Origin: Patescibacteria group bacterium | GTDB taxonomy: Bacteria > Patescibacteriota > Minisyncoccia > UBA6257 > JAAZHW01 | NCBI GenBank assembly: GCA_026415775.1 | Contig: JAOAGL010000001.1 | Location: forward strand, 6,282-70,281 | Reading direction: 5' to 3' | DNA: 64,000 bases | Shown here: piece after piece, positions 16,492-56,023 of the stretch | Layout of the letters: each line of letters begins with the position of its first letter | How positions within the stretch are numbered: the stretch's first letter is position 1 | The notes under the pieces: model-generated | What the model saw: only the letters and a program-made list of their open reading frames with translations | The model's database searches: none | What the model was told of the DNA's origin: nothing | Program-made: the position numbers and the translations under genes

Positions 16492-16625
16492 TTTCTCACC
16501 TCCTTTCATTTAAATTAACATGCTACTATTATAGTAATTATTTAAAAAAATAAGTCAATAATCAATAAAAAAACATTTGCTCTTTGCATTTATCTTAAGG
16601 TAAAATAAAGATATATAAGAAATAT

Positions 16626-35337: not shown

Positions 35338-35402
35338 AAACAATTAAATATCTATTATTAGAATAATCAAAAACTCAATTAAAGTCAACGATTAGGTTTT
35401 CC

Positions 35403-50756: not shown

Positions 50757-52430
50757 TCAATATCCAAACCATTCACGATTGGCCACTACCCGTGTTAATG
50801 GCCCAAAATAACCCGTTGGCGGCAAGCCGTATTTTTGCTGATATTTTTGGATAGCGGCTTTTGTTAAATCCAAAAAGTTCCCCGTGATTAATCCGCCACC
50901 ATAAATACTCGGCTCTTTCTCTGACAACATCTTTTGCAAACATTTCACATCATTATCATTCTTTAAACCATAATACAAATCTCTCTGAAAACGCGAGCAG
51001 GAAATAGTTGTTTGATTTGTGGCATTTAATTGAGCAACAAGCATTGCTAATTGAGCTTTAAGTTGAGCAATGCGTTGATTAAGCATTTCAATTAAAGTGG
51101 AGTTATTAGAAACACTGCTTGAAACTTGCGCGTCATATTTAAATAAAGCGCTACCCGCTGAATTATTAGTAATAAGAGGCAAAAGATAAAGCGCGTTAAT
51201 ATTAACACCGAAATCAGAAATAGAAATCGTCCCTTTATTGTTGTCTTTATTAGAAACTGTTTCTATTTTTTTATTATTCGCTTTATCAACGCTGATATAA
51301 GTTAAAACAAACTGCGTATCCTGCGGAAATTCATAATAAACTTTTAAATCGCCTCGACCGCCGCTGATTTTAATCCAAGTGCCAGCGTATAAATTTAGAT
51401 AGCTATTGGCGGTTAAAGAAGCAGTACCATATTCAGGCAAATAAGTGGTATAAGGGTAGATGCGGAAATTGCTCAAATTAGGATTATCAAAGCAATAAAG
51501 CTTACCCAAAGAACAATCATTAAAAAGCATCGCAATTAACCAATTGCGAAAAAGAGTATTAAAATCTTCTGAATAACCATTTTTTGCCAAAGCGTAATTA
51601 ACCGAAGCAATGCCAGTTAAATTAGAACGCAGCGAATCAACCAAAATTTTAATGCCATATTTCTCAACAATATATTCAGCCAAAAGATGAACAGCCGCAT
51701 AATCACTATTTGTCCCTTTGAATTCCAACAACGAAAAATTGGGATTTTGACGCAAAGCATTCAGACGTTTTTCTAAAATACTGCCAGCTAAATTATTGTT
51801 ATAACCTAAAAAAGTGGAAAAATAATCTGAGCGCGCTTCTGCCAGCCAACGCTCATCTTCGGAATTAACAAAAATGCCTTTTTGATTAAACGAAATGAGA
51901 TGTAAAACTTCATGAGCAAGATAATAGCCGATTTGCTGAGGAGGTGTATCTAAAAAAATCGCGGTATTTAAATAAACCATCTCGTGCTGATTGGAAAAAT
52001 TATTGGCTGAAGCGGGCAATGAATCAACAAAGCGAGCATAACCAAGAAAATTTTCTTTTAAGGGATGAATTAAAATATAAATGCGGGTGTCATTATCATA
52101 ACCAGGGATAGCCTCGGAGCCAAAGGTTGCTGTAATTTTCGGATAATCATAGTTTTCAAAATAACTGGCTAAAGAGAAAATTTTGGCATTGATATTATTT
52201 TGGTCAGTAAACGTAAGGCTTTGCCACCAATTGGTATCAATGTAGAAATTGAGTTTATTAGTTTGATAAATGAGAATAGCGTTTATTTGATTGCGAGAAT
52301 AATAATCATAATCGCTTTCAACATAAAAAACGCTCTGCGAATTAATTGATTGAGCAGAAACAAAAAGCGGCGCAAACAAAATTAGCATTGAAATAAAAAT
52401 AAATTTCCAATTTTTGGTCTTTTTCGCCAT
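50757..52430 (-). CDS. Secreted HExxH metalloprotease-like protein with C-terminal coiled coil and peptidoglycan-binding domain
   Basis: Likely start MAKKTKNWKFIF... (signal peptide), so the ORF-track start at 52520 is probably too far upstream. YLAHEVLHL HExxH motif. C-terminal LNQRIAQLKAQLAMLVAQL and PG_binding_1-like ...KYQQKYGLPPTGYFGPLTR. Confidence 0.55.
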   Translation of the reverse strand: MAKKTKNWKFIFISMLILFAPLFVSAQSINSQSVFYVESDYDYYSRNQINAILIYQTNKLNFYIDTNWWQSLTFTDQNNINAKIFSLASYFENYDYPKITATFGSEAIPGYDNDTRIYILIHPLKENFLGYARFVDSLPASANNFSNQHEMVYLNTAIFLDTPPQQIGYYLAHEVLHLISFNQKGIFVNSEDERWLAEARSDYFSTFLGYNNNLAGSILEKRLNALRQNPNFSLLEFKGTNSDYAAVHLLAEYIVEKYGIKILVDSLRSNLTGIASVNYALAKNGYSEDFNTLFRNWLIAMLFNDCSLGKLYCFDNPNLSNFRIYPYTTYLPEYGTASLTANSYLNLYAGTWIKISGGRGDLKVYYEFPQDTQFVLTYISVDKANNKKIETVSNKDNNKGTISISDFGVNINALYLLPLITNNSAGSALFKYDAQVSSSVSNNSTLIEMLNQRIAQLKAQLAMLVAQLNATNQTTISCSRFQRDLYYGLKNDNDVKCLQKMLSEKEPSIYGGGLITGNFLDLTKAAIQKYQQKYGLPPTGYFGPLTRVVANREWFGY

Positions 52431-52516
52431 TTTCTTGATTATAAAATAAAAGAGGTGGTGTTTCAATGATTTGAAAAAGAAAAGCGGCTGCGTTGTTCCA
52501 ACGCAGCCGCTTGAGT

Positions 52517-53350
52517 TCAATTTTCCTCCCTAAAGTCCCGCAGGGACATGCCCCGCGGGTTTCTTTCTACATCATCCTCTGCGCGGAGAGGAAGCTTTTT
52601 TCCTCTCCTTTTTTCTACTTTTTTTTCTACATCGACCTTGACCTTCTTCTGCTCCCGGTCTGATGGTACTTCAACGGGAACGGGATCAGGAAGAAATGGC
52701 TGAGAGTGAGGGGAAGGCTGCTGGGGCTGTGGAGGGTTCATCCTCGGCCGAGGAGTACTCGACCGAAGAACATTCTCCAATCCCTTTTCCCACTGGGGAT
52801 TGGAGATGCGATCGGGCTCGAAAAGCTCGACCGCCACTTCTAGAAGTTCCTCCGTGACCTCGCCGCGGAGAAACTCCCGGAGTCCCTCCTTGTCCCGCAC
52901 AAAGTGCGGGACATCAATCGCTACCCGCTCCTTTTGCAGGAGCTGGTAACGAGCCCCCTGGCGGACTACTGCAAGGTAATCCGCCACTAGTTTTCGGCCA
53001 TGGAACCGCACCACGGTTCCATTCCGAAAAACTATGAGCCATTTCTCCAACTTTTGATTAAAGCGGGGAGTGACTCTTTTGCCTTCCCCTACCAGCACCA
53101 CCCAGCCACGAGGGCCAGGAACGGCCAGCGAGAGCTGAAACCAGTGAGGCTGCCCTAGTTGGGGCAGTATCACCCACGGTTTCACCTCCCCTGTGGAGAG
53201 GATTTCGCACGGGATTTTCACCCGTGCATCCTCACCAAGGTAGACGCCCTGCAGGGCGCCTCCCTTGATTCTCTGCCGAATTTCTCGGCAGAATTCCTGC
53301 CCGAGCCGCTCCCAGACGGCCCAACATCTTAAAAATTTTAAGCCTATCAT
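52517..53350 (-). CDS. Hypothetical protein, GC-rich (about 50% GC) gene, Pro/Arg-rich C-terminus
   Basis: 277 aa. Composition (R, G, P, V rich) and codon usage are unlike neighbouring genes. No recognised domain. Own terminator GCGGCTGCGTT-GTTCCAA-CGCAGCCGC at about 52470-52505. Confidence 0.5.
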   Translation of the reverse strand: MIGLKFLRCWAVWERLGQEFCREIRQRIKGGALQGVYLGEDARVKIPCEILSTGEVKPWVILPQLGQPHWFQLSLAVPGPRGWVVLVGEGKRVTPRFNQKLEKWLIVFRNGTVVRFHGRKLVADYLAVVRQGARYQLLQKERVAIDVPHFVRDKEGLREFLRGEVTEELLEVAVELFEPDRISNPQWEKGLENVLRSSTPRPRMNPPQPQQPSPHSQPFLPDPVPVEVPSDREQKKVKVDVEKKVEKRRGKKLPLRAEDDVERNPRGMSLRDFREEN

Positions 53351-53427
53351 TTTAAACCTCCTTTTAAATTTTCAAACAAGGTGTGGCCCGGGCCGACAGC
53401 CCTGACGGTTCACCTTGCGCTGATTTA

Positions 53428-53456
53428 AGAATATCATAAAAACTCAAAAAAGTCAA
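53428..53456 (-). promoter_or_regulatory. Sigma70-type promoter (TTGACT-N17-TGaTATTCT) for the 277-aa GC-rich gene
   Basis: Minus-strand reading ATATTGACTTTTTTGAGTTTTTATGATATTCT. Member of the repeated promoter module. Confidence 0.55.
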
Positions 53457-53476
53457 TATAAATAAAAAGGAGGGAC

Positions 53477-54091
53477 TTAGTCCCTCCAACGATCGGGTGA
53501 GGAGGATGTTAAATCCTCCTTCACCCACACTGAGTTCCTTTCCAGAATGGAAAGGAACTCTTCGTACGTCCGCGGTCTTTTCAAACCGCGGACGTAAACA
53601 ATCACCTCCCGCGGAGCGCGGGAGGGATTGTGGTCCCAGGAGGTTAAATACCTTAACCTCCCGGCACCATCTCTCTTGATGCCATTAATGGCATCAAGAG
53701 AGACCCCCAGCCTCTGGAGGACCTTCTCCAGGTCCTCCATAGACCGGAAGCACCACATTGCCCTAAAGGGCAACTGGTGCTCCCGGCAATATCGCCGGGG
53801 GAAATCTCTGTCTTCCTCCACAGGAGGAAGACAGAGGACTTTGTGTGGGGAAATCCGGTAAACTCTACCGGATTTCACCTTCCATAACCCTCCTCCGCGG
53901 GAGGAGGAAATAATCCTTCCTCCCGTACCCACTTCCAGGATCCACCCGGAAGTGGGGTCCTGGGGATCCGGGACCAGAATCATTCTGGCTCCAGAATCCC
54001 CCTTCCGAATTACTTGCGGCCCAGCCGCAAGCAATTCGGAGGAAACCAGAATTTCAAAAAAATTTGCCATTTTTTCCTCCTTTTCCCCCAC
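53477..54091 (-). CDS. Hypothetical protein, GC-rich gene
   Basis: 204 aa, Arg/Gly/Ser-rich. Preceded by RBS AAGGAGGAAAAAATG and a structured GC-rich 5' leader. No recognised domain. Confidence 0.5.
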   Translation of the reverse strand: MGEKEEKMANFFEILVSSELLAAGPQVIRKGDSGARMILVPDPQDPTSGWILEVGTGGRIISSSRGGGLWKVKSGRVYRISPHKVLCLPPVEEDRDFPRRYCREHQLPFRAMWCFRSMEDLEKVLQRLGVSLDAINGIKRDGAGRLRYLTSWDHNPSRAPREVIVYVRGLKRPRTYEEFLSILERNSVWVKEDLTSSSPDRWRD

Positions 54092-54173
54092 CTGCCTTAC
54101 GGTCAGGTGCCCACCTTTTTCTAAACAAAAAAAGGTGGGGTTTTAAGGGTTATTTTTTTAAATGGCTACATAT

Positions 54174-54202
54174 ATTATATCATAAAAAATTCAAAAAGTC
54201 AA
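54174..54202 (-). promoter_or_regulatory. Near-consensus sigma70 promoter (TTGACT-N17-TGATATAAT) for the 204-aa GC-rich gene
   Basis: Minus-strand reading TTGACTTTTTGAATTTTTTATGATATAAT. Perfect extended -10. Confidence 0.65.
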
Positions 54203-54238
54203 TAGAGTGCCAATTCAAACTAAAAAAGAAAAGCGGGT

Positions 54239-54445
54239 CTAAAAACCCGCTTTTTTCCTAAATTTTTCTCTTTCTTTCTCCTTTCTGTCCTCTAGGACAG
54301 AAAGGAGAAGTATCAGCAACACAGAAGCCAACATTAACCCCCCTGTTAGCGCCGTCCACCCTATCTTCTCCTGCCCCCACGGCCGAAAGCCGAAGAGGAG
54401 GAGATTTTCAATAATTAACAAAAACAATAAAAAATATTTCATCAC
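54239..54445 (-). CDS. Small hydrophobic membrane peptide (hypothetical)
   Basis: 68 aa with two hydrophobic segments. Shares an operon with the lytic transglycosylase. Terminator hairpin GCGGGTTTTTAGACCCGC at 54225-54256. Confidence 0.35.
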   Translation of the reverse strand: MMKYFLLFLLIIENLLLFGFRPWGQEKIGWTALTGGLMLASVLLILLLSVLEDRKEKEREKFRKKAGF

Positions 54446-54457
54446 AACCTCCTTTTT

Positions 54458-55234
54458 TTATTTTAGAAAGTTTGAATACGTAATTATAGCAAGAACATAT
54501 GCTAAATCGTGATTGTAACTTAAAATAGCCTCCTTCTGCCTATAAAAATCACCTCTCTTCCAACCATGAGCACGCAGATAACGAGCAACGCTCATAACCG
54601 CGTCATCAACCTTATTCAAATCAACTCTACCATCGCCATCTCCATCAACCCCATACTGCAGGTAAGAAGATGGAAGAAATTGAGGCAGGCCGAACGCGCC
54701 CATATAAGATCCACTATAGTTATATGGATCTTCATGATTTTTTCTAGCTATCAAAAACAGATTAAGCATCTCTTTTTCCGCAAAATCCGCTCGAAAATCC
54801 AAAATAAGCATTGAATAAAAGGTTGATATCAGACGACGTCTACCAACAAAACTGCCAAAATTCGTTTCCAACCGAAGAATAGCCACAATCACTTCTTTGG
54901 ACACTTGAAATTCTTTTTCGGATCTTTCCAAAACTGATTTGTTTTCTGTAAGAAATTCCCGACCGCGAGCAATGGAATTCAGTGAAAACAAACCAAATGC
55001 CGCTTCAAAATAATCTACCTTCTTCTTTTTGAGTTCCCCAATATCATTATAAAATTCCAACCGCGGATCGGAAAAAATTTTCTCCAGCTCAGAACGCGCA
55101 AATCTCTCTTTCTCTAATTTTTTTACTGCTCTTTCTAAAGCTGGCGGGAATTCTTTTTCTTCTCCCAGAAGAATTATGGCCAACAGTGCCAAAAATAATA
55201 AAAGCAACAGTGCTTTCTTTCCTTCATCTTTCAT
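54458..55234 (-). CDS. Lytic murein transglycosylase (MltB/SLT family 3-like)
   Basis: 258 aa. Signal/TM then ...YMGAFGLPQFLPSSYLQYGVDGDGDGRVDL... (GxxQFxP and EF-hand-like Asp loop typical of MltB-type enzymes). Confidence 0.7.
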   Translation of the reverse strand: MKDEGKKALLLLLFLALLAIILLGEEKEFPPALERAVKKLEKERFARSELEKIFSDPRLEFYNDIGELKKKKVDYFEAAFGLFSLNSIARGREFLTENKSVLERSEKEFQVSKEVIVAILRLETNFGSFVGRRRLISTFYSMLILDFRADFAEKEMLNLFLIARKNHEDPYNYSGSYMGAFGLPQFLPSSYLQYGVDGDGDGRVDLNKVDDAVMSVARYLRAHGWKRGDFYRQKEAILSYNHDLAYVLAIITYSNFLK

Positions 55235-55254
55235 TGCCTTCCTCCTTTTTTAAT

Positions 55255-55557
55255 TTAATTAAAGTATTTCGTTAGCAAAATTTTTCTAAATCCATTTTTC
55301 CACATAACCTCCATAGCCTGCAACTTTCCTCCTCCAAAAAGCACTCTAATCCCAAAAAATTTTGGTTCGCCATCCTTAAATCTAGTTAGTCCAATAACAT
55401 GACCCTCCTTTAATTTTGTAAAATCTACTTTGCTTAACCATTCGGAAACTTTATTGGCATCTTCTTCGGAAATTTCTTTTTGCACAAAAAGCAGGTCCAA
55501 AATCTTTATTGCTTCTTTTTCAATTTCTTCAATAAAATCATCAGTCAGTTCTTTCAT
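55255..55557 (-). CDS. Hypothetical small protein
   Basis: 100-aa acidic N-terminus. No motif recognised. Preceded by a promoter-module copy. Confidence 0.4.
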   Translation of the reverse strand: MKELTDDFIEEIEKEAIKILDLLFVQKEISEEDANKVSEWLSKVDFTKLKEGHVIGLTRFKDGEPKFFGIRVLFGGGKLQAMEVMWKNGFRKILLTKYFN

Positions 55558-55623
55558 TTTCTCCTCCTTTTTATACCCGAACCTTAAATGGGTTGGGCAT
55601 TTAATTATTAAAAAGCTGCCTAT

Positions 55624-55652
55624 ATTTCAGCATAAAAATTTTAAAAAGTCAA
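55624..55652 (-). promoter_or_regulatory. Sigma70-type promoter (TTGACT-N17-TGAAAT), member of the repeated module
   Basis: Minus-strand reading ATTGACTTTTTAAAATTTTTATGCTGAAATATA. Confidence 0.5.
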
Positions 55653-55660
55653 TGGTTTGA

Positions 55661-55701
55661 ATAAAAAATAAAAGCCCCAGCTCTTCGAGAAGAGCTGGGG
55701 C
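55661..55701 (-). terminator. Rho-independent terminator
   Basis: Minus strand: GCCCCAGCTCTTC-TCGA-AGAGCTGGGGC followed by TTTTATTTTTT. Confidence 0.8.
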
Positions 55702-55832
55702 CGTTCCGTACCTTTTTTTACGCCCCCGGAATTTTGGGGCAACCTCCTACTGATAGGAGGGTTGTTAAAAAATAACTAGTCCGGTGCCAATGGCCTTTTG
55801 GCCATCATTCTCACCTCCTTTTTTAAAATATC
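55702..55832 (-). ncRNA. Candidate small RNA / structured leader with a 10-codon ORF
   Basis: Lies between a perfect TTGACT-N17-TATAAT promoter (55839-55867) and the terminator at 55661-55701. Contains AGGAGGTG then ATGATGGCCAAAAGGCCATTGGCACCGGACTAG (MMAKRPLAPD), itself a palindrome (ATGGCC-AAAA-GGCCAT), plus further hairpins (CCTCCT-ATCAGT-AGGAGG; CCCC..GGGG). Confidence 0.4.
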
Positions 55833-55838
55833 TAAACT

Positions 55839-55867
55839 AATTATATCATAAATTATTTTTTAAGTCA
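55839..55867 (-). promoter_or_regulatory. Consensus-like sigma70 promoter (TTGACT-N17-TGATATAAT) driving the candidate sRNA
   Basis: Minus-strand reading TTGACTTAAAAAATAATTTATGATATAAT. Confidence 0.6.
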
Positions 55868-56023
55868 AGGGTGGAAAATTCAACGAATTTCCCCTGCTTT
55901 GGGAATCTTTGTTTTTTTATTAGTTAATAATCGCCAGAAATTATAAATAAAAAACTGCTCCCGCCGAAAGGCGGGAGCAGCCAAAGCTGGGATTAACCCA
56001 GCCAACCCCTCAAGGAAAGGGTG

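Follow-up and report, generated by a model that had tools for sequence, protein, structure and literature searches.

Four copies of a probable extended -10 promoter module, and hairpin-rich genes behind two of them, in a Patescibacteria genome

Why four consecutive minus-strand transcription units should be headed by nearly the same 29 bases is the question raised by a variable region with a cell-surface (PG_binding) gene on either side, in a hot-spring genome of Minisyncoccia-related Patescibacteria. The window referred to here is the whole 64-kb stretch of DNA that was analysed. The four copies of the module, c1 to c4, span 2.4 kb:

53428-53456, minus strand: putative promoter c1, TTGACT-17-TATTCT, TG present
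54174-54202, minus strand: putative promoter c2, TTGACT-17-TATAAT, TG present
55624-55652, minus strand: putative promoter c3, TTGACT-17-TGAAAT, TGC before the -10
55840-55868, minus strand: putative promoter c4, -35 TTGACT at 55863-55868, spacer ending in TGA, -10 TATAAT at 55840-55845

In all four copies the -35 hexamer is TTGACT, which matches TTGACA at five of six positions, the spacer between the hexamers is 17 nt, and a TG lies one base 5' of the -10 (-15/-14), as ATGA or ATGC. The genome has about 30% GC, and the spacer of the module is almost wholly A/T. The -10 hexamer agrees with TATAAT at all six positions in c2 and c4, and at four of six in c1 (A2 and T6 present) and c3 (A2 absent), as the initial annotation had described with its two perfect and two weaker hexamers; its coordinates hold for c1 to c3 and were one base low for c4. 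The four-copy module was borne out as well, since the pattern TTGACTT-N9-TTTATG-N-T has four exact matches in the window, all on the minus strand, against 0.17 expected from dinucleotide-preserving shuffles (n=100), none of which reached four. With one mismatch allowed, the 64-kb window gave no match beyond these four. Each copy omitted from a leave-one-out PWM scored 18.6-30.7 bits and ranked right after the three training copies; the best of the remaining positions, out of about 128,000, reached 10-14 bits. The spacers share 13-14 of 17 bases among c1 to c3 and 9-11 of 17 where c4 is compared, and random composition gives about 5 of 17. An independent consensus scan recovered c4, c2 and c1 with their TG, and skipped c3 because its -10 has no A at position 2. 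A genome-wide motif scan had been suggested; run over the 64-kb window, it returned the four copies only, all of them intergenic and upstream of a gene or small RNA.

Each of the four modules has the orientation of the genes that follow it and lies 12-85 nt 3' of an intrinsic terminator. From the module it is 66-103 nt to a GGAGG RBS and ATG, unless it opens the small RNA. Every copy stands in front of a separate transcription unit, in agreement with the proposed placement ahead of a gene start or candidate sRNA. Extended -10 promoters of the sigma-70/sigma-A type (TGn, or the TRTG '-16 region') are known from E. coli and low-GC Gram-positive bacteria, and the modules resemble them in the -35 TTGACt, the 17-nt A/T-rich spacer, the TG, the TAtaaT hexamer (exact in c2 and c4, four of six in c1 and c3) and the distance of 20-100 nt to the RBS. 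They differ from them in nothing essential; at -11, the second base of its -10, c3 has no A, and the host belongs to the Patescibacteria. The modules are very probably housekeeping promoters of this kind, each starting one short terminator-bounded unit, and their architecture would be a -35 TTGACT, a 17-nt T-rich spacer, TRTGn and a -10 hexamer. That RNA polymerase starts at the modules, and how strong each promoter is, are predictions from the sequence. The strength of c1 and c3 is uncertain because c1 carries TATTCT (4/6), and c3 carries TGAAAT, a presumably weak -10 hexamer for want of the near-invariant A2.

The two units furthest upstream are those that c4 and c3 would drive:

55664-55833, minus strand: small transcription unit of about 170 nt behind c4, both ends predicted
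54229-55557, minus strand: operon behind c3, with its start codon 66 nt past the -10 hexamer
55255-55557, minus strand: 100-aa ORF of the c3 operon
54458-55234, minus strand: SLT_2 / MltB-like lytic transglycosylase of the c3 operon
54239-54445, minus strand: 68-aa membrane peptide of the c3 operon
54229-54254, minus strand: terminator of the c3 operon, overlapping the 3' end of the 68-aa ORF

Besides an RBS and the 10-codon ORF MMAKRPLAPD* (55776-55808), the c4 unit contains the hairpin CAAC(C)CUCC-UAUCAGUA-GGAGGUUG; its intrinsic terminator is at 55673-55702, and c3 lies 20 nt past this terminator. The body of the unit is conserved in four related loci (L006, L003, L004 and L007), with compensatory changes in both hairpin and terminator. 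L006 has the ORF as MVRRPLAPD* and L003 as MVAIRSLAPD*; where the LAPD codons vary, they do so at synonymous third positions. The product of c4 appears to be a small RNA or a leader carrying the 10-codon ORF.

The genes behind c2 and c1 are of another kind:

53469-54166, minus strand: 197-aa cassette, putatively c2-driven, with a 5' UTR holding two hairpins, an RBS, the ORF and a terminator
53477-54070, minus strand: 197-aa ORF, terminator at 53469-53487
52482-53350, minus strand: 277-aa gene, putatively c1-driven, ORF at 52517-53350, terminator at 52482-52512
53377-53417, minus strand: 5'-UTR stem-loop of the 277-aa gene, CAAGGUGAACC..GGGCUgUCGGCCCGGGCCACACCUUG

Both genes have 53-55% GC in a genome of about 30% GC, and their mRNAs are chains of stable hairpins. 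The RNA of the 197-aa cassette folds into about 16 near-perfect hairpins in a row, with an MFE of -440 kcal/mol versus -257 +/- 8 in shuffles (z = -23), and 60% of the ORF lies within hairpins of >=9 bp, as compared to <=5% in synonymous-codon shuffles. Remote homologues of 133-214 aa share a MAxF N-terminus with this ORF, which confirms its start codon; the gene itself looks orphan-like. The 277-aa protein belongs to a conserved family, with 12 homologues and a conserved domain; the AF2 model of its N-domain (pLDDT > 90) had no neighbour in the PDB. Its 5'-UTR stem-loop is found in eight of nine loci, with compensatory changes in both stems in L008 and L009. Within the coding region of this family the local mRNA structure comprises 257 pairs with 94% of cells paired, and 36 pairs have changed on both sides versus 3-16 in slid controls, so the hairpins have been maintained by compensatory changes, which in part are amino-acid-changing substitutions. 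The mismatches in the stems, 14 G.U versus 1 A.C, argue for selection on the sense RNA and speak against a DNA-level origin of the hairpins. The region 52520-54090 was also considered as one large non-coding RNA with spurious ORFs, which was rejected since both ORFs have homologues. The profile match between the 197-aa ORF and the 277-aa gene is weak (40 columns, hhalign probability 2.8%, E 0.016 in one comparison), and a diverged duplication of the 277-aa gene is unproven as the source of the 197-aa ORF. A scan of species-representative genomes located the family in one genome only, the Minisyncoccia MAG Kamch4336. Rfam at the gathering score matched four tRNAs and nothing else in the whole 64-kb window, and at E <= 1 over 52400-56050 it gave nothing credible for the small RNA, the 5' UTR element of the 277-aa gene or the hairpin-rich transcripts.

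The modules themselves recur at matching positions in as many as eight related Minisyncoccia loci, and they change more slowly than synonymous sites nearby. They are 89-97% identical to their counterparts in L006 and L001, whereas the neighbouring SLT gene reaches 68% identity at its third codon positions. In the footprint over nine loci the -35 and T-tract, the TG and the -10 are invariant, whereas the upstream flanks cannot be aligned. For c1, TTGACTTTTT and TTTT.TG.TAT are invariant in all nine loci, down to a protein identity of about 35-47%, and the upstream flank is not conserved. Between c4 and L006 34 of 35 bases are identical and the neighbouring CDS 75-88% identical, and c3 is kept in L001, L006, L003 and L007 as TG(A/G)AAT. 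Differences specific to single copies are also retained in the relatives, namely ATGCTGAAAT or GGAAT in c3, ATGATATTCT in c1 and the A-rich spacer of c4. Because c1, c3 and c4 are positional orthologues with their own diagnostic differences, these three are old, and purifying selection would hold the similarity among the modules.

The core of the module (-35, T-rich spacer and TTTATGnT) is also widespread in low-GC metagenome contigs: at least 120 unrelated ones carry it, and TATAAT nearly always comes next; at the unconstrained -10 positions A2 was present in 109 of 122 core-bearing contigs, T6 in 113/122 and the exact TATAAT in 49/122. An RBS and ORF followed within 300 nt in 79 of the 122. 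Since the core precedes TATAAT in so many unrelated contigs, the extra conserved bases would be generic, that is, the extended -10 and T-rich spacer of low-GC promoters. The likeness beyond the hexamers would then be the look of a strong low-GC promoter, whose -35 is followed by a T and a T-tract and which carries TTTATGnT.

Only c1 and c2 have a more recent history. The 197-aa cassette is missing from all related loci, and c2 aligns with the single promoter of L001 through ATGATAT and diverges after it, the upstream half of c2 being the ancestral promoter of the 277-aa gene. The pair arose by a lineage-specific insertion of the 197-aa cassette, which split and duplicated this ancestral promoter, yielding c2 and c1. 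In L004, a relative, a cassette has been deleted between two modules. As direct repeats of about 30 nt, the modules would also act as recombination substrates. Both junctions, that of the 197-aa insertion and that of the L004 deletion, lie inside the module (13-30 nt), as happens when gene order is remodelled by RecA-dependent or slipped-strand deletion and duplication at short direct repeats; unlike in those cases, the repeats at this locus are predicted promoters, and every surviving cassette would therefore keep an intact hybrid promoter after rearrangement.

Against this background the similarity of the modules can be read in several ways. The initial annotation suggested the recent duplication of a promoter cassette, and c1 and c2 are truly the halves of one duplicated promoter. 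Extended to all four modules, recent local copying is unlikely, even though they cluster within 2.4 kb and c1 to c3 have so much of their spacers in common. The copy-specific differences of c1, c3 and c4 persist in relatives whose proteins are just 35-78% identical to those of the window, so any common origin of the modules predates these lineages, and since unrelated organisms carry the core too, convergence on a strong-promoter sequence suffices for the similarity. A shared regulator-binding context had been offered as well. It would make the conserved spacer an operator for one common transcription factor, or else a site for an alternative sigma factor, and the four units a regulon; the spacers are indeed better conserved between orthologues than synonymous sites, and the units adjoin, two of them driving the unusual hairpin-rich genes. 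But the spacer shows no symmetry, either dyad or direct-repeat, c4 departs from the other copies at 6-8 of its 17 spacer bases, and the hexamers match the housekeeping consensus and not an ECF or sigma-54 pattern. The unrelated TATAAT contigs have the same conserved bases, a T-tract behind the -35 and TTTATG ahead of the -10, so a shared regulator is not required and a regulon is quite improbable. We take these bases to correspond to the TRTG '-16' element of low-GC sigma-A promoters.

Could the module be primarily a recombination or integration site, by a logic like that of an integron attachment site, with promoter activity secondary? The cassette content between the two PG_binding genes varies among the relatives, both junctions examined sit inside modules, and the locus resembles integron cassette arrays in its short, variable, same-strand cassettes parted by a repeated element. 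Unlike those arrays, it has neither an integrase among the scanned neighbours nor an attC-type imperfect palindrome, and promoter and terminator come with every single cassette, where an integron relies on one Pc promoter. There is no recombinase or integrase among the five neighbouring proteins scanned, the module has no hairpin or inverted repeats, its four copies are all clustered, and just two events were observed, with junctions that ordinary homologous or slipped recombination gives in direct repeats of 13-30 nt. We regard a dedicated integration site as very unlikely. Lastly, the low GC content and the A/T spacer would favour chance pattern matches in an A/T-rich genome, to which we give practically no credence, as the shuffles, the leave-one-out PWM and the nine-locus footprint refute it and the modules are intergenic, on the strand of the downstream genes and conserved at orthologous positions.

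Besides the deviating -10 hexamers of c1 and c3, two further points speak against the preferred reading as housekeeping extended -10 promoters. The spacers are kept at 15-17 of 17 positions between orthologues, which is above the need of sigma contacts alone, and the window has no fifth full module, which is odd for the housekeeping consensus of this organism. The module was also said to define the organism's strong-promoter consensus, a claim not borne out in that form, given the missing fifth copy in 64 kb; nor is its core organism-specific. Most genes of the window may lie in long operons or behind weaker promoters. Looser elements do precede two other genes, as had been stated: TTGACT-16-TACTAT at 16531-16558, 5' of the RBS and ATG of the Cys-rich peptide gene, and TTGACT-17-TATTCT at 35360-35388, 22 nt upstream of tRNA-Val. 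Next to the locus there is a further promoter of different sequence:

52438-52466, minus strand: putative fifth promoter, TTGAAA-17-TATAAT, 4 nt 5' of the ATG (52433) of a 558-aa PG_binding gene

As it ends 4 nt ahead of this ATG, the mRNA of the 558-aa gene, from its predicted start, is probably leaderless.

The sequence features, positions, conservation and recombination junctions of the modules are direct observations. It is a tentative idea that the modules mark a few autonomous, highly expressed cassettes, that the 197-aa and 277-aa transcripts are dual-function RNAs, and that the promoters double as recombination points. Selection on the RNA may maintain these chains of stable, sequence-unique hairpins in a hot-spring Minisyncoccia lineage even where amino acids change as a result, and the transcript could be an mRNA resistant to RNase and heat, could act as scaffold or decoy towards a dsRNA-binding factor, or could give rise to small hairpin RNAs. 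Known mRNA stabilising stem-loops (5' stabilisers, REP/BIME and 3' terminator hairpins) are likewise stable, GC-rich and under RNA-level selection, which for the present hairpins is seen in the stem mismatches and the covariation, but they are untranslated and few per transcript; in the 197-aa cassette about 16 hairpins follow one another within the ORF and take up 60% of its length. A literature search on hairpin-rich coding regions in thermophiles returned nothing relevant.

Our literature search found no promoter mapping for Patescibacteria, and the four cases described here, supported by comparative genomics, indicate that this group uses the standard -35 / TRTGn / -10 architecture, which may be of use in annotating transcription units and in designing expression tools for its uncultivated members. 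The locus is also a clean case of repeated promoters as break-and-join points, where cassettes move and each would keep a working promoter. The hairpin-rich mRNAs are more interesting than the promoters themselves, and coding mRNAs that consist of conserved hairpins in tandem, within an otherwise AT-rich thermophile genome, are the more significant lead; if explained, they could show how such organisms protect or reuse their transcripts.

The TTGACT promoter module is present in four minus-strand copies (c1 to c4) in the window:

53428-53456, minus strand: c1, TTGACT-TTTTTGAGTTTTTATGA-TATTCT
54174-54202, minus strand: c2, TTGACT-TTTTGAATTTTTTATGA-TATAAT
55624-55652, minus strand: c3, TTGACT-TTTTAAAATTTTTATGC-TGAAAT
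55840-55868, minus strand: c4, TTGACT-TAAAAAATAATTTATGA-TATAAT

The initial annotation had placed c1, c2 and c3 correctly and c4 one base too low. The pattern TTGACTT-N9-TTTATG-N-T matched the window exactly at these four sites and at no more when one mismatch was allowed, against 0.17 matches expected by chance; four matches were never reached in 100 dinucleotide-preserving shuffles. In a leave-one-out analysis with a position weight matrix (PWM), only the three training copies, of about 128,000 positions scored, ranked above each omitted copy, which had 18.6-30.7 bits versus 10-14 bits for the next best site. The four-copy repeat is therefore genuine, far in excess of what chance would give. 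When the matrix was trained on all four, the copies scored at least 35 bits and the best other site in the window 9.4 bits, and the module was found within the 64 kb only in one 2.4-kb cluster. The looser elements also reported elsewhere do exist: TTGACT-16-TACTAT is found near 16.5 kb and, near 35.4 kb, TTGACT-17-TATTCT, which ends 22 nt 5' of tRNA-Val.

The two ORFs adjoining the modules are identical to the NCBI proteins N2692_00320 and N2692_00325, encoded on a 492-kb contig of a Patescibacteria MAG, and GC content, about 30% in the window, rises to as much as 53% at 52.5-54.1 kb. Read on the minus strand, the locus is a series of self-contained units:

Unit 1, minus strand: PG_binding 620-aa gene and terminator
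Unit 2, minus strand: c4, a predicted transcript of about 170 nt and terminator
Unit 3, minus strand: c3, a 100-aa ORF, an SLT_2 / MltB-like lytic transglycosylase (SLT) gene, a 68-aa membrane peptide and terminator
Unit 4, minus strand: c2, the 197-aa ORF and terminator
Unit 5, minus strand: c1, a structured 5' UTR, the 277-aa ORF and terminator
Unit 6, minus strand: fifth promoter and PG_binding 558-aa gene
52438-52466, minus strand: fifth promoter, of different sequence (TTGAAA-17-TATAAT), from the consensus scan
55953-55982, 55673-55702, 54229-54254, 53469-53487 and 52482-52512: intrinsic terminators of the minus-strand units

The independent consensus scan also recovered c4, c2 and c1, each with the TG. 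Every copy lies 12-85 nt from the preceding terminator, and the distance from the -10 to a GGAGG RBS and ATG is 66 nt for c3, 77 nt for c1 and 103 nt for c2. Only 4 nt separate the -10 of the fifth promoter from the ATG start codon of the 558-aa PG_binding gene and no RBS is present (52433-52466, minus strand), so the mRNA of this gene is probably leaderless. The 620-aa PG_binding gene is preceded by a gap of some 230 nt (57887-58120, minus strand) with several stem-loops and no clear module-type promoter. The gene of the 68-aa membrane peptide, which has a weak, sub-threshold Pfam match to a phage holin family, carries a perfect 16-bp hairpin (54275-54310), and the related locus L007 seems by eye to have this hairpin too, with a compensatory change.

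The gene order is the same across the Minisyncoccia-type loci that carry homologues of the 277-aa protein (handles beginning with L). An orthologue of c1 was found in eight of eight related loci, and in the nine-sequence alignment TTGACTTTTT, TTTT.TG.TAT and the GGAGG RBS are invariant and the region 5' of the -35 is unalignable. The c3 copy with its peculiar TG(A/G)AAT -10 is retained in L001, L006, L003 and L007, and c4 is retained in L006. Compared with L006 and L001, identity is 89-97% in the 35-nt modules and 75-88% in the adjacent coding sequence; at third codon positions the SLT gene is 68% identical. Purifying selection thus acts on the modules, their spacers among them. The four modules are predicted sigma-70-type extended -10 promoters, and we infer that transcription initiates there.

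The similarity of the whole module had been attributed to recent duplication or to a shared regulator-binding context, and the module had been taken to define the strong-promoter consensus of this organism. Public metagenome contigs were scanned with the core common to c1-c3, TTGACTTTTT-N4-TTTTTATG-N-T, which leaves five -10 positions unconstrained. At least 120 contigs contain the core (median GC among the matches listed, 0.37), and contig names indicate varied sources, e.g., one groundwater and one human gut. Among the matches listed, the -10 after the core had A2 in 109/122 and T6 in 113/122 and was exactly TATAAT in 49/122, and an RBS-ORF began within 300 nt past the core in 79/122, most commonly at 19-60 nt. 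These biases point to a generic strong low-GC promoter composed of a -35, a T-rich spacer and a TRTGn extended -10 as the source of the whole-module similarity. The TRTGn extended -10 is known in Escherichia coli and in Bacillus sigma-A promoters. With so widespread a core, neither a shared regulator nor recent copying is needed and the consensus is not specific to this organism. Recent duplication applies only to the c1/c2 pair and is unsupported as a general explanation of all four copies. The upstream flank, -35 and spacer of c2 match base for base the lone promoter of the 287-aa gene of L001, the alignment holding to ATGATAT and diverging beyond, and c1 aligns with that same promoter from TATTGAC on, through the -10 and 5' UTR. 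The upstream flank of c1 is the terminator of the 197-aa ORF, which is absent from every related locus compared. An ancestral promoter was thus interrupted by a promoter-ORF-terminator cassette of about 745 bp, and a module remained on either side. The converse is seen in L004, where the sole promoter is the c3 upstream flank of L003 fused to the spacer, -10 and UTR of L003 c1, the product of a deletion from one module to another whose crossover lies within CTATTGACTTTTT. Between the PG_binding genes, the small RNA, a 99-aa gene, the SLT gene and a 65-81-aa peptide gene are each present or absent among relatives. Ordinary recombination between short direct repeats explains this cassette variation, and no recombinase was found among five proteins scanned.

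Two of the transcribed regions contain small conserved elements:

55664-55833, minus strand: small unit (RBS, 10-codon ORF, hairpin, terminator), the predicted c4 transcript
55776-55808, minus strand: 10-codon ORF MMAKRPLAPD*, with RBS
53377-53417, minus strand: 5'-UTR stem-loop (41 nt) of the 277-aa gene, in eight of nine loci

The counterparts of the 10-codon ORF are MVRRPLAPD* in L006 and MVAIRSLAPD* in L003; the reading frame and the C-terminal LAPD thus persist in all three diverged versions, and inside the LAPD codons variation is confined to synonymous third positions. The ORF is followed by a CCUCC/GGAGG hairpin and a terminator, both of which covary. Rfam has no match to the unit, a candidate leader-peptide element or small (dual-function) RNA. 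The 5' UTR stem-loop likewise has no Rfam match; it has changed in a compensatory way in L008 and L009 and is a possible leader that mediates autoregulation or senses a ligand.

The predicted c2 transcript (707 nt) has a GC content of 54% versus about 30% in the genome and a minimum free energy of -440 kcal/mol versus -257 +/- 8 for shuffles (z = -23). The 197-aa ORF (53477-54070, minus strand) is 60% covered by about 16 consecutive, near-perfect hairpins, each unique in sequence and with a stem of 8-19 bp, versus at most 9% in dinucleotide shuffles and 5% in synonymous-codon shuffles; the hairpins are found in each of the three phases of the reading frame, and a perfect 34-nt palindrome (53670-53703) lies inside the transcript (53469-54166, minus strand). 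Exhaustive HMMER searches found only remote homologues, small proteins of 133-214 aa (E down to 2e-15), whose shared MAxF N-terminus argues that the ORF is a real coding gene. The homologue genes in other CPR contigs, one of which is from a groundwater metagenome, have a hairpin cover of 0-10%. The public annotation begins at Met30 (168 aa); the MAxFxDL N-termini of homologues and a GGAGG RBS support the ATG at 54070 as the true start (197 aa). Residues ~13-94 match many repeated stretches in giant proteins (P0014, P0019, P0024, P0026), up to 25 in one 3325-aa protein. A scan of two of the matching giants showed Big_9 / CshA-type Ig-like repeats, so that the N-terminal domain may be Ig-like, or sequence composition may account for the matches.

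The 277-aa gene (52517-53350, minus strand), also found in the Minisyncoccia MAG isolate Kamch4336 and in more JGI and Logan metagenome contigs, has a hairpin cover of 17%, its close orthologues 20-28% and shuffles about 1%; neighbouring window genes are at background. The family hairpins lie at conserved alignment positions, and family GC is 51-57% in loci of ~36-40% GC (the window, L001, L003, L004, L006 and L007). Hairpins are few or absent in the three most divergent homologues retrieved, whose GC is 0.37-0.44. In a six-sequence alignment, the local-hairpin structure has 257 pairs with 94% of cells paired, and both sides changed in 36 pairs versus 3-16 in slid controls, a result matched by none of 500 shuffles. 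Some compensatory changes alter amino acids, e.g., CGT..GCG to CAT..ATG. Stem mismatches were G:T in 14 cases versus A:C in one, a bias pointing to the sense RNA rather than DNA as the target of selection. The protein model has a confident, mostly beta-strand N-terminal domain followed by a disordered P/Q/K-rich tail, and domain and structure searches gave no family or fold match. ARAGORN reported a tRNA-Leu(CAA) within the coding region (52879-52967, minus strand); Rfam's tRNA model reported none there at gathering score, and the tandem hairpins most likely gave rise to a spurious call. The simplest idea is that the hairpin-rich c1 and c2 mRNAs are protected against heat or RNases, and they may have a second, RNA-level function.

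The hairpin-chain mRNAs merit separate follow-up, and the promoters themselves are of low to moderate interest, the extended -10 promoter being a kind of element already known. What is new is the documentation of such promoters in a Patescibacteria lineage and the evidence for repeated promoter modules as junctions of cassette gain and loss.
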